Assembly (NCBI RefSeq): GCF_024223415.1
Contig: NZ_CP100500.1
Strand: one strand, 5' to 3'
Length of the DNA stretch: 64,000 nt
Origin: Escherichia coli
GTDB taxonomy: Bacteria; Pseudomonadota; Gammaproteobacteria; Enterobacterales; Enterobacteriaceae
Part shown: positions 5,249 to 63,062 of the stretch, piece after piece
How positions within the stretch are numbered: the stretch's first letter is position 1
Layout: the number at the start of each line of letters is the position of its first letter
The notes under the pieces: model-generated
The model's database searches: none
What the model was told of the DNA's origin: nothing
What the model saw: the letters and a program-made list of their open reading frames with translations, nothing else
Program-made: the position numbers and the translations under genes

Positions 5249-5546
5249 ATTGCCATTACAAAAGCCACTCCCTACAGAGTGGCTTTGATAATGGCTTATA
5301 CCCTACACGGGATAACTTAACTGATATCCCTTTTAACGGATAAAGGTATTCAAGCCTGACACATCATGCGCTGTATCGTCGCCGTATTCCCGTATTAACA
5401 GAGACCGTAGCCCGACGGGGAACTCCTTCTGCGCGAGTGTGCGGGAATAATCAAAAACGATGCACACCGGGTTTTACTGTGCTGACAGACGCAGGGTTAC
5501 CCTCATAGTCGCTTTTCCGGTGCGATGGTGGAAGAAACCGGGATGT

Positions 5547-60143: not shown

Positions 60144-60416
60144 ATGTCTCATACAATCCGTGATAAACAGAAACTGAAAGCGCGTGCCAGTAAGATTCAG
60201 GGCCAGGTCGTGGCGCTCAAGAAAATGCTCGACGAGCCGCACGAATGCGCTGCAGTTTTACAACAGATTGCTGCTATCCGTGGCGCGGTAAACGGTCTGA
60301 TGCGGGAAGTGATTAAAGGTCATCTGACGGAACACATCGTTCACCAGGGGGATGAGCTAAAACGTGAAGAAGATCTGGATGTCGTTCTGAAGGTGCTGGA
60401 TTCATATATCAAATAA
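60144..60416 (+). CDS. rcnR: Metal-responsive repressor RcnR (CsoR/RcnR family)
   Basis: 90 aa; divergent from rcnA. Confidence 0.95.
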
Positions 60417-60505
60417 TTTATTAACGCGATTGTAAAACTGCCGTTTTTCCTCGTTTACAACGCGTGCGCTGGACATTACCATCCTCCTCTGCGATTTATC
60501 ATCGC

Positions 60506-60557
60506 AACCAAACGACTCGGGGTGCCCTTCTGCGTGAAGGCTGAGAAATACCCGTAT
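60506..60557 (+). promoter_or_regulatory. thiM TPP riboswitch aptamer, 5' portion only, truncated by insertion
   Basis: AACCAAACGACTCGGGGTGCCCTTCTGCGTGAAGGCTGAGAAATACCCGTAT matches the E. coli thiM leader as recalled, then diverges (expected CACCTGATCTGG..., found TTTCTCATTTAG...). Confidence 0.75.
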
Positions 60558-60745
60558 TTTCTCATTTAGTGTTTTTTGTGGTTCGGGGTTGTTCGTGGTT
60601 GTTTGTGTATGTGTTTGATATATATTGAATTATTGTGTTTTCTTGTTTGTTGTTGTTCGTCGTTGTTCGTAGAGCTTCAACAAAATGTGTGGTCAGTTGT
60701 GTGGTCAGTTTTTTGAGGCTGGAGGACTGAAAAGAGGATCTGATA

Positions 60746-61969
60746 GTGGGAAAAGCACTAAACAAACTGAGCGATTCGACGTTAAAAAAATTGGCGTCTG
60801 TCCAAGCAGAAAAAGAGCGTTTTTACTCCGACGGGGGCGGGCTGGAGATTAAACACTCAAAGGGCGGCAAATTAACCTGGTATTTCCGGTACCGAACGGG
60901 AGGCCGTGAGGTTGCCGCAGAGCGGTTAAAGCTGGGGGCTTACCCTGAATTGTCGCTGAAAGCTGCAAGGGAAAAACGCGCACAGTGCCGGGCATGGCTG
61001 GCTGAGGGTAAAAACCCCCGTTATGAGTTGTGCGCCACAGTACAGGAAGCGCTAAAACCCGTTACGGTGAAGGAGGCGATTAACTACTGGCTGGATGAAT
61101 ATGCGAAGGATAACCGCAAAGACTACATAAAGCTGGTGCAACGTATGGATAAGCACATCATTTGCCATATAGGGGCAATTCCCCTTGATAAGTGTGATAC
61201 AAGGCAGTGGATCGCATGTTTTGACCGTGTACGAAAAAAAGCACCAGTAGCAGCAGGGCACGTCATGCAAACCTGCAAACAGGCGCTAAAGTTCTGCCGC
61301 AGGAGACGCTACGCGTTCAGTAATGCCCTGGACGATTTGATCGTCAGCGATGTGGGTAAGAGAGCAGAAATTCGCGAGAGGGTGCACAGCAACAGCGAAT
61401 TAAAGGAAATTTTACGCGCTATTGATGGTGATGTGTTCGCGCCTTACTACAGCGCGTTAATGCGCTTGCTGATTGTGTTCGGGTGCAGAACGGCAGAGGT
61501 CAGACTTTCAGAGATCAAAGAATGGGATCTGAAAGAAATGTTGTGGACAGTGCCAAAAGAGCATAGCAAAACGAAGGTAACGATATTCAGGCCAATCCCC
61601 GATGGCATTTTGCCGTTCATTCAGAAGCTGGTGGAGCAGAACCGGCATACAGGGTTATTACTCGGAGAACTGAAAAAAGATACCACGGTAGCGCAATATG
61701 GGCGAAATGCGCATAAGCGGCTTAACCAGGAACACTGGACGCTGCATGACTTTCGCCACACGTTTACAACGATGCTGAACGATTTAGGTGTCGATCCGCA
61801 TATCGTGGAGCACATCACAGCGCATCAGATGCCCGGTCAGCAAAAAACCTATAACCATTCACGCTATTTACAGGCGAAGCGAGACGCTCTGAATCTGTGG
61901 GTTGAGCGCCTCGATGTGCTGGCTGGAAATCATGAAAATATTGTCATATTAAGGGCTGAAAATGAATAA
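60746..61969 (+). CDS. int: Tyrosine recombinase, P4/CP4-57-type integrase
   Basis: 407 aa; C-terminal catalytic motifs (HDFRHTF...HITAH...Y); GTG start. Confidence 0.9.
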   Translation: MGKALNKLSDSTLKKLASVQAEKERFYSDGGGLEIKHSKGGKLTWYFRYRTGGREVAAERLKLGAYPELSLKAAREKRAQCRAWLAEGKNPRYELCATVQEALKPVTVKEAINYWLDEYAKDNRKDYIKLVQRMDKHIICHIGAIPLDKCDTRQWIACFDRVRKKAPVAAGHVMQTCKQALKFCRRRRYAFSNALDDLIVSDVGKRAEIRERVHSNSELKEILRAIDGDVFAPYYSALMRLLIVFGCRTAEVRLSEIKEWDLKEMLWTVPKEHSKTKVTIFRPIPDGILPFIQKLVEQNRHTGLLLGELKKDTTVAQYGRNAHKRLNQEHWTLHDFRHTFTTMLNDLGVDPHIVEHITAHQMPGQQKTYNHSRYLQAKRDALNLWVERLDVLAGNHENIVILRAENE

Positions 61970-62747
61970 TCTGGGCCGTGTATATCATACGCTGCCAATG
62001 GCAGCTAAAAAAATGGGATGTACTGTAGAGGATATTCTACATTTTGGTGCAACTAACCGACTTGAAATATGTGCGTATATTGATGATATTGAACAGAGAA
62101 AAGATTATTGCACTTTTAATGTGTTTTTTGATAATGAAGATAGCGAGAATAGTTTTTCTAAAACTATAAATAAATATAATTCCATATTTACTGACATGTA
62201 TGAAATATCATTGTTTAATTATAATGATGAGTTTTGTGTTGATGATGAGCGTATGGTTATTGAAGGTTTGTATGCTAATCATATGAAAGGCTTTTTTGCA
62301 ATACCATCTGAATTTCTTGTCGAAGTTGAATTGTCAAGTGCCTGTGAAATCATAAATCTATCGCCTCGTTATTTATATACACCGAAAGGTTATGGTGATT
62401 ATATTCGGTTGGATAGTATAGAAGGTCTTTCTATTCCAGAAAACAGGCTCGTGATATTCGATAGTGAGATATCGGGTTTTAATTATCAAAAGAAACCTAA
62501 ATATGCCGGAGGTGAAAGAGAATCACCTAAAACCAGAGCTAAAAAAGCCGAGATAATACCTGCTCTCATAAAACTGATCCCTGAGATGCAAGATGTGGAT
62601 TTGGAGGATACACCCGTATCCAAAATTGCAGAAATGATAGAGGTTATTGCTGCACAAAGAGGGGTTGAGTTACCTAGCACTCACAGGCAGACATGGCAGA
62701 AATATTTAGGGCGTGATGCTGGTGACGTTCCAAAACGTCAAAAGTGA
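61962..62747 (+). CDS. Hypothetical protein, low GC, start overlaps the integrase stop
   Basis: 261-aa ORF overlapping the int stop (ATGAATAA); AT-rich codon usage; no family recognised. Confidence 0.6.
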   Translation: MNNLGRVYHTLPMAAKKMGCTVEDILHFGATNRLEICAYIDDIEQRKDYCTFNVFFDNEDSENSFSKTINKYNSIFTDMYEISLFNYNDEFCVDDERMVIEGLYANHMKGFFAIPSEFLVEVELSSACEIINLSPRYLYTPKGYGDYIRLDSIEGLSIPENRLVIFDSEISGFNYQKKPKYAGGERESPKTRAKKAEIIPALIKLIPEMQDVDLEDTPVSKIAEMIEVIAAQRGVELPSTHRQTWQKYLGRDAGDVPKRQK

Positions 62748-62837
62748 TATCACGTACAGATAGTGTGATATCACACAAACGGCATTTTACCACCGCCTAG
62801 AATCGTCCTCGTTCGGCAACGTTCGAGGACGTTTTTT

Positions 62838-63062
62838 ATGAATCAAAATACACAATTTCAATCACTATCAGATCGCGTAATCCGTGAGGATGAATGCCGT
62901 AAGTTAACAGGAGTGTGCCGCACTACACGCTACGAACTGGAGAAAAAAGGGAGCTTTCCGTCTCGCCGTAATCTTGGTGGGCGTTCTGTAGGTTGGCTGC
63001 TGTCCGAGGTTATGGAATGGGTTAAAAGCCGGGATCGCATTAATTCAGGCAAGGCAGCGTAA
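62838..63062 (+). CDS. alpA: AlpA-family phage transcriptional regulator
   Basis: 74 aa; HTH region RKLTGVCRTTRYELEKKGSFPSRRNLGGRSVGWLLSEVMEWV typical of AlpA. Confidence 0.85.
   Translation: MNQNTQFQSLSDRVIREDECRKLTGVCRTTRYELEKKGSFPSRRNLGGRSVGWLLSEVMEWVKSRDRINSGKAA

Follow-up and report, generated by a model that had tools for sequence, protein, structure and literature searches.

Two classes of repeated site in the left att arm of a PICI-type satellite at the thiM riboswitch leader of Escherichia coli

Introduction

Which proteins read the short repeats that fill the 188 bp between the Escherichia coli chromosome and the integrase gene of an integrated element? The window analysed here is a stretch of 64,000 nucleotides (contig NZ_CP100500.1), and the 188 bp lie near its right-hand end. 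The initial annotation took this segment for an arm of an attL site, and its repeats for candidate arm-type integrase sites or IHF sites. Arm-type sites are textbook parts of attachment sites, and finding them is in itself ordinary. The identity of the reader is a question that has been raised before: the attP of helper-embedded phage-inducible chromosomal islands (HE-PICIs) contains a doubled motif, tgTGTATTGCantgTGTATTGCa (NAR Genom Bioinform 2023, PMC10111431), which its authors reported to be absent from other PICIs and which, according to them, would be read either by the arm domain of the integrase or by AlpA (PMC10111431).

The insertion point

The E. coli chromosome in the window contains yehABCD, rcnB, rcnA and rcnR, and the thiM leader comes next after rcnR. 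The features on both sides of the junction are the following.

60144-60416: rcnR, the host gene ahead of the thiM leader
60454-60482, plus strand: promoter-like site TTTACA-17-TACCAT in host sequence, upstream of the thiM leader
60508-60557, plus strand: 5' half of the thiM TPP riboswitch aptamer, split by the insertion (Rfam and attB/attL/attR alignment)
60544-60557: attL identity block AGAAATACCCGTAT, 14 bp, containing the crossover region
60746-61969, plus strand: int, for a P4-like tyrosine integrase that has an arm-binding domain at its N terminus (GTG start; Pfam)
62838-63062, plus strand: alpA, Phage_AlpA family (Pfam PF05930, E = 4.4e-16)

When the window is aligned with the K-12 attB and with the right end of a related island, the last host base falls at 60557 and the first island base at 60558. 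The junction and the gene calls made earlier, with int starting at a GTG at 60746, are right, and the arm is 188 bp long. The block AGAAATACCCGTAT is present at both ends of a related island (L001, positions 20145 and 34550) and in a single copy in the K-12 attB. The Rfam TPP model gives 19.5 bits at the half-riboswitch of the window (gathering score 54.3) compared to 71.2 bits at the intact K-12 site, the low score being due to the riboswitch half having been cut. As judged from these alignments, the island sits inside the thiM TPP riboswitch leader, into which it was inserted by recombination within AGAAATACCCGTAT. Literature searches turned up no account of the thiM leader serving as an attachment site, nor of an insertion that splits its riboswitch in this way.

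The promoter-like site at 60454-60482 is the sole sigma-70-like match within 60400-60900. It has the same letters in the empty site of K-12, and it faces through attL into int once the island is inserted. The attL keeps the promoter and the 5' half of the riboswitch (60454-60557 in the window; the empty site is 5337-5433 of the K-12 locus L093), and the 3' half, together with thiMD, ends up 10-16 kb away at attR (34550-34650 in L001). Neither a promoter nor a plus-strand terminator is detectable in the right arm before thiMD. With the riboswitch split, transcription from the host thiM promoter would run into int, and thiMD would be left without promoter and sensor. TPP control of thiMD is probably lost in the 75 carrier genomes, these being the genomes in which the arm was found among 5426 complete E. 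coli genomes; the arm occurs at two places per genome at least in all 75.

The surroundings of the site vary. The O157:H7 locus (L002, 17787-19748) has an additional ~2.3 kb between rcnR and the riboswitch half, comprising an outer-membrane protein gene, a hypothetical gene and an HTH-like fragment, and this segment may be the remnant of another element. Far from the island, at 1777-2009, the window contains a close cluster of tRNA-Met, tRNA-Arg (tct) and tRNA-Thr (tgt) genes, of the type found in lambdoid prophages.

The island and its relatives

Counting from 60558, the order of elements is the 188-bp non-coding arm, int, an ORF, alpA and a DUF3950 gene. The integrase matches Arm-DNA-bind_3 (PF13356, E = 2.3e-18) and Phage_integrase (PF00589, E = 7.1e-17), and its residues 8-95 match the arm-binding domains of PDB entries 3JTZ and 3JU0. 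The product of alpA is the activator and probable excision factor of the island; the part played by AlpA in the induction and excision of PICIs has been described (PMC6092414). The product of the ORF at 61962-62747 is 261 amino acids long and gives no Pfam match; the ORF overlaps the stop codon of int. In islands of Erwinia, Serratia and Kosakonia, int is likewise followed by ORFs of this sort, and a DUF6387 gene takes this place in L003 and L004.

The window stops 3.4 kb into the island, the right end of which lies beyond 64000, and the evidence on the right arm comes from relatives that are ~95% identical. These same-site relatives are complete elements of 10-16 kb, either cf-PICIs or Rpp-type PICIs, and int is followed by a co-directional alpA, as in PICIs. 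Two of them, L001 and the O157:H7 locus L002, are capsid-forming PICIs with genes for int, alpA, an icd-like protein, a helicase or primase, SSB, PerC, capsid, protease, portal, HNH, TerS and TerL. Two others, L003 and L004, are PICIs with a DUF1441 gene. The four islands differ in cargo at one site and therefore a single int/att module serves satellites with different cargo, which fits published descriptions of PICIs and of EcCIEDL933. By this comparison, the 188 bp is the P' arm of the attL of a PICI-type phage satellite.

Parts of the left arm

The arm can be divided, from the core towards int, into the parts listed below, where motif A is the TTGTTC-type unit and motif B the doubled 12-mer.

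60556-60587, plus strand: core-proximal conserved segment with a candidate C' core-type integrase site ATTTTCTCA, plus TTAGTGTT
60580-60606, plus strand: proximal motif A array GGTTCGGGG, GTTGTTCGT, GTTGTTTGT, TTGTTC-type, 10-bp period
60608-60620, minus strand: IHF-like site TATCAAACACATA, with one mismatch to WATCAANNNNTTR, identified by consensus match only
60621-60641: AT-rich spacer of variable sequence and constant length
60642-60670, plus strand: distal motif A array CTTGTTTGT, GTTGTTCGT, GTTGTTCGT, 10-bp period, a candidate site for AlpA or another accessory factor
60686-60709, plus strand: motif B, TGTGTGGTCAGT twice, a candidate pair of arm-type integrase sites
60733-60738, plus strand: int Shine-Dalgarno sequence AGAGGA, 7 nt ahead of the GTG start, as read from the sequence

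The three copies of GTTGTTCGT that had been noticed before are all exact (60588-60596, 60652-60660 and 60662-60670), and no further exact copy exists on either strand of the whole 64-kb window. Degenerate copies stand in phase with them (GGTTCGGGG at 60580, GTTGTTTGT at 60598 and CTTGTTTGT at 60642), so that the TTGTTC-type units make up two arrays, 60580-60606 and 60642-60670, each with a period of 10 bp. The tandem repeat of TGTGTGGTCAGT is also real, but it had been placed one base too high, at 60687-60710; the two exact copies occupy 60686-60697 and 60698-60709. Both classes of repeat lie 36-160 bp upstream of the int start. No sigma-70-like int promoter or promoter-like hexamers were found inside the arm.

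The stretch is rich in T (46%) and G (29%), and the repeats were compared with 5000 dinucleotide-preserving shuffles of it. An exact tandem 12-mer appeared in 0.02% of the shuffles and a 9-mer present three times in 1.5%. The tandem 12-mer doublet is clearly non-random by itself. The triple 9-mer is marginal when taken alone, and is rescued by its conservation on both arms of the island and across families.

Twelve distinct attL variants of the thiM family differ in a manner that follows these parts. The motif B doublet is 100% invariant. The core-proximal segment 60556-60587 has 90% invariant columns and the IHF-like site at 60608-60620 has 85%. The motif A arrays have 58-72%, with the lowest value for units A1-A2 (60588-60606) of the proximal array, in which a TGTT[CT]G core is conserved, and the AT-rich spacer has 33%. 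The sequence TTAGTGTT is common to all E. coli families examined, and in the families at thiM, yifB, abgR/smrA and tqsA the IHF-like site keeps its position, at +59 to +64 relative to the core. Neither class of repeat matches the IHF consensus WATCAANNNNTTR. Thus, of the earlier reading of the segment, the attL arm stands, as does the arm-type integrase site in as far as the doublet behaves like one, whereas neither repeat is likely to be an IHF site.

The other end of the island and the geometry of attP

Comparison with the other end of the element, which had been proposed as a check, was carried out on the ~95% identical relatives, and similar repeats are indeed present there. A direct copy of a ~75-bp module recurs beside the right-end core of L001-L004, 60-130 bp before the core. 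The module consists of three TTGTTC units phased at 10 bp and, after them, the TGTGTGGTCAGT doublet. Conservation of the right arm extends over ~215 bp, and the islands diverge upstream of it. Four more proviruses from IMG/VR have the doublet at each end, 10.8-14 kb apart.

Related integrases, with ~70% DNA identity, are found in PICIs at yifB, abgR|smrA, cspD|clpS, tqsA and roxA. For the first four, complete islands were analysed. In all four, each arm consists of 3-4 phased TTGTTC-type units followed by a doubled 12-mer, with the sequence GGTGTAGTTAAT or GGTGTAGTCACT in these families. Counted from the start of the identity block, the first bases of the doublets in the reconstructed attP lie at -89 and +143, or at -94/-95 and +138/+139. 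The distance from doublet to doublet, 232-233 bp, is constant in five integrase families, and doublets are present on both arms in 11 complete islands. The two doublets of an attP are co-oriented, and the stretch from either doublet to the core contains IHF-like sites at conserved positions. The reconstructed core has an imperfect inverted symmetry, TAAGAAA / TACCCGT / ATTTTCTCA, with the same layout in the other families; from its place in this arrangement, we infer that ATTTTCTCA would act as a core-type integrase site. The islands have an integrase with an arm domain, a shared identity block and repeated non-core sites on both arms that co-vary with the integrase, as an attachment arm should. 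All this defines a compact attP of ~420 bp, which would be useful for integration vectors built on these integrases.

An 11.1-kb metagenomic viral contig (L226, IMGVR_UViG_3300045988_152974) is circular by a terminal overlap of 119 bp. Its positions 1-330 and the terminal 119 bp form a contiguous attP of the tqsA family, with the doublets 233 bp apart. The contig is direct evidence of an excised or packaged tqsA-family PICI in a virome. No attP junction of the thiM family was found in the viral contigs.

Left arms with the same layout, each with a doublet of its own, are also found in Phytobacter, Raoultella, Kosakonia, Erwinia, Serratia and Xenorhabdus. A scan of one genome per species gave seven relatives, none with a right end within 10 kb, and the evidence on right arms comes from E. 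coli.

The reader of the doubled 12-mer

In a comparison of 37 loci, the sequence of the doublet tracks the β-hairpin of the integrase N-terminal domain. The hairpin LEIKHSKGGK goes with the doublet GTGTGGTCAG, VRHST[SN]GL with GGTGTAGT[TC]AA, and VKYLTSGK with GGTGTAGTCAC. Further variants of the doublet occur in the other genera named above and in the HE-PICIs. AlpA does not behave in this manner. L002 encodes exactly the same AlpA protein, WP_001075374, as L008 and L009, but its doublet is GTGTGGTCAG and theirs is GGTGTAGTTAAT, and near-identical AlpA proteins are paired with both GTTAA and GTCAC doublets. Since one AlpA protein coexists with two different doublets, AlpA is not the reader of the doublet, and since three variants of the doublet occur in a single host species, a host factor is not the reader either. 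The integrase is the only protein that changes together with the doublet.

Part of this association is to be expected because close linkage alone would give much of it: the attL doublet lies within ~170 bp of the codons of the N-domain hairpin, and all parts of attP are within ~450 bp of int. The assignment to the integrase rests on the concerted identity of the two arms and on the exclusion of AlpA and of host factors. The same sequence on both arms and the fixed geometry go beyond what linkage would produce. The doubled 12-mer TGTGTGGTCAGT is most likely the arm-type docking site of the island's own integrase. The choice between the integrase arm domain and AlpA as reader of the doubled PICI motif is thereby answered in silico, in favor of the integrase. 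In a natural hybrid (L064), a core of the roxA site is combined with an N-domain hairpin and a left doublet that are both of the tqsA type; no island identical to it was found among complete E. coli genomes.

The reader of the TTGTTC arrays

The TTGTTC core remains unchanged while the arm domain of the integrase changes. The initial annotation had offered the GTTGTTCGT copies, too, as arm-type integrase or IHF sites. They are more likely to be sites of an accessory factor, as they do not change with the integrase and are present at promoters within the islands as well. The GTTGTTCGT units and the TGTGTGGTCAGT doublet appear to be two separate classes of site and should not be lumped together.

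Phased TTGTTC arrays were seen in the islands alone, and ~300 kb of host flanks contained none. Within the islands they occur in attL (twice), in attR, upstream of the capsid operon and, inverted, in the spacer between int and alpA. The capsid-operon arrays (L001 27009-27035, L002 28267-28293 and L010 25689-25715) lie just past a terminator, with the third unit at the -35 position, before TATTTT. The inverted arrays are found in L005 (20250-20301), L006, L007 (20366-20392), L010 and L011. The thiM family has no motif A array upstream of alpA.

Besides the integrase, AlpA is the sole annotated helix-turn-helix regulator that is common to all complete islands. The arrangement fits that of an excision-factor array, with phased direct repeats beside the arm sites and an alpA gene (62838-63062) in the same element. 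Elimination of other candidates and the analogy with TorI, RdfS and Vis make AlpA the likeliest reader of the GTTGTTCGT/TTGTTC units, an assignment that is weaker than that of the doublet. In EcCICFT073, overexpression of AlpA induces the island in a manner that depends on int, and closed circles of excised DNA are detected; AlpA also activates the promoter of its own gene (PMC6092414). The activity of the int promoter was left unchanged by AlpA (PMC6092414). This last result counts against the explanation that we prefer, as do the lack of an array upstream of alpA in the thiM family, the presence of arrays on both arms and the failure to detect an int promoter in the arm. It is possible, though we hold it tentatively, that the phased TTGTTC arrays are a PICI-wide AlpA operator, coupling excision to control of the int-alpA region and to the switching-on of the island's own capsid operon. 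The second phased motif ties the att arms to island promoters, and it gives a testable way into the question of how AlpA might link excision to late expression.

Several other proposals for motif A were considered and rejected. A correspondence of TTGTTCG with the AlpA recognition helix TTRYE and of TTGTTCC with CRYR fails because the capsid-operon array is identical in both classes and because arrays mix the two forms. Replication iterons were dismissed since the same arrays accompany RepA helicase, DUF927 or primase-type replication proteins. YlcI/YnfO is not a universal reader, as L006 and L010 lack it.

Alternative explanations

The reading opposite to ours for the doublet, in which it is a site of the excision factor AlpA and not of the integrase, draws on P4, where Vis reportedly binds two boxes between int and the core, as Cali and colleagues are said to have described in 2004. 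It was also left open for the analogous HE-PICI motif (PMC10111431). The occurrence of one AlpA protein with two doublets (L002 compared to L008/L009), and of near-identical ones with the GTTAA and GTCAC types, makes this highly improbable. Chance origin from a low-complexity stretch rich in T and G, to which the composition of the arm and the frequency of triple 9-mers in the shuffles would lend some credit, is refuted by the comparative data: not only is a tandem 12-mer very rare in the shuffles, but the doublet is invariant, is repeated on the other arm and has homologues in many families and genera, leaving this explanation a probability that is virtually nil. The repeats might also be nothing other than operators of the int promoter, dispensable for recombination. 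They do lie at a suitable distance upstream of int, and such sites regulate int in KplE1 and ICEMlSymR7A. A second copy, however, is found 10-15 kb away at the other end of the island, at a fixed distance from the core in five families, and the arm contains no promoter-like hexamers; the roles of operator and of recombination site are, in addition, not exclusive. An operator function as the sole role is thus very unlikely.

Two other explanations concern the arrays. Both classes of repeat could be arm-type sites of the integrase, of two affinities or in two registers, with no excision factor bound. The two classes stand side by side on each arm, and the sites P'1-P'3 of phage lambda resemble tandem units phased at 10 bp. 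Yet the integrase has a single arm domain, with which motif B changes and motif A does not, and motif A is also found away from att, at promoters, which makes this explanation quite unlikely. A host protein, either a response regulator or a nucleoid-associated protein that recognizes phased repeats, might read the TTGTTC arrays and bend the arms for recombination. A common host factor would explain why the TTGTTC core is near-constant across integrase families, both AlpA classes and other genera. The helix-turn-helix of AlpA is itself well conserved, however, so that a constant motif fits AlpA equally; furthermore, the arrays occur in islands alone, none being present in the ~300 kb of flanking chromosome, and they are placed at regulatory positions specific to the islands, the capsid operon and the int-alpA spacer. 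We regard the host reader as unlikely, and AlpA is kept as the preferred reader of the arrays.

Comparison with known systems

Phage lambda has a two-domain integrase, and its attP contains arm sites (P1, P2 and P'1-P'3) on both sides of the core that are unlike the core sites. The DNA is bent between arm and core by IHF, and directly repeated accessory sites, for Xis, lie beside the arm sites. All these traits, the two-domain integrase, the two-sided arm sites, the bends and the repeated accessory sites, have counterparts in the layout of the island, those of the bends and the accessory sites being predicted. The arm domains belong to different fold families, that of the island being PF13356, compared to the N-terminal domain of lambda Int. 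Unlike lambda, the island has two sites per arm in one orientation and candidate accessory arrays on both arms instead of one; excision-factor sites on both arms, as the island would have, are unusual beside lambda. Also unlike lambda, int is transcribed away from attL and the arm overlaps the region upstream of int.

In this last respect the island resembles KplE1 (CPS-53), in which the attL carries IntS arm-type sites and TorI sites that overlap the intS promoter (PMC2951348). In both elements int adjoins attL and is read away from the core, and the two classes of site share ~200 bp upstream of int; with such an overlap, auto-regulation of int is expected. KplE1 targets a tRNA gene and its sites were mapped by experiment, whereas the island targets a riboswitch leader, its sites are predicted and its arm contains no detected promoter.

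The attP of ICEMlSymR7A, 283 bp long, has five G/T-rich arm sites, TGKTGGTATC, for the P4-family integrase IntS, and the excision factor RdfS binds beside the arm site just upstream of intS as well as at its own promoter elsewhere in the element (PMC11963761). The integrase of the island is of the P4 family too, but the arm sites differ in sequence and number. RdfS has no clear consensus site, whereas the candidate accessory sites of the island are a clear phased repeat. ICEMlSymR7A is conjugative and the island is a phage satellite. Lambda, KplE1 and ICEMlSymR7A together provide the mechanistic frame for the att arm of the island.

Phage P4 is likened to the island by description and not by sequence, and its Vis boxes are described on the int-proximal side alone. 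Cali and colleagues reportedly found in 2004 that Vis is both a regulator of late promoters and a requirement for excision. Vis is elsewhere described as a relative of AlpA that regulates late promoters and is needed for excision (PMC6092414).

The closest parallel is the doubled motif of the HE-PICIs. In both cases the motif is a tandem 12-bp doublet, of which two co-oriented copies are placed asymmetrically in attP, and in both the integrase is a P4-like PICI integrase with alpA downstream. The HE-PICI doublets are 81 bp upstream and 132 bp downstream of the center, and those of the island start at -89 and +143 from the identity block, so that the summed spacings may differ by about two helical turns, depending on how they are measured. 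The motif itself is different, with the core TGTATTGC in HE-PICIs and TGTGGTCAG in the island, and the published HE-PICI motif was found in none of the 100 loci checked. On the side of the island, each integrase clade has a doublet of its own and AlpA is excluded as the reader. The comparison suggests that the island doublet is the same kind of site as the HE-PICI motif, in another clade, and that every PICI clade has one. The doubled motif described for one clade would then be general, with each integrase clade using its own version in the same geometry.

Proposed mechanism

From the anatomy of the arm, its presence at both ends, the fixed geometry and the co-variation with the integrase, all of which are observed, we infer which protein binds which site and what this does to excision and transcription. 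The core-binding and catalytic domains of the integrase would act at the crossover, with the N-terminal arm domain docked on the TGTGTGGTCAGT doublet. Because an identical, co-oriented doublet is present on the other arm, attP would have four docking sites, one for each subunit of the tetramer. Four integrase subunits could thus occupy the core sites and reach across to the four half-sites that the doublets provide, and IHF-type bends in the AT-rich segments between doublet and core may bring each arm back to the core. AlpA, which is related to Vis of P4 and TorI of KplE1, would coat the phased TTGTTC units and switch the complex to excision, and could use the same TTGTTC motif at island promoters.

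Both classes of site probably also tune transcription of int and of the island operons. Since the two classes lie within 160 bp upstream of int, in an arm without promoter-like hexamers, int may control its own expression, as it does in KplE1. Once the island is integrated, int may be read from the host thiM promoter. Taken as a whole, this scheme, in which the P' arm of a PICI attL serves for docking of Int on the doublets, for binding of AlpA to the TTGTTC arrays and for tuning of int and the operons, seems probable to us.

Other elements of the islands

A stable, GC-rich hairpin followed by a T-run abuts the alpA start codon (62803-62837; -19.2 kcal/mol, z = -3.6), and the ribosome-binding site of alpA is within the 3' half of its stem. 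A similar hairpin abuts the capsid gene in related cf-PICIs (L001 27210-27249, z = -2.6). The alpA hairpin could be a terminator or a translational block for a helper phage to overcome. Just upstream of alpA, the palindrome GTGATATCAC occurs twice (62744-62753 and 62765-62774), 21 bp apart, and the pair looks like an operator for a dimeric regulator. At the opposite end of the islands, the block CATCCACCAGCTTCATAACGGATAGCCGGAAAATGATAACGGTTAA (L001 34346-34395) is also found at the right ends of L006, L007, L008 and L173. It is kept across PICIs that have different integrases and att sites, one helper-embedded PICI included.
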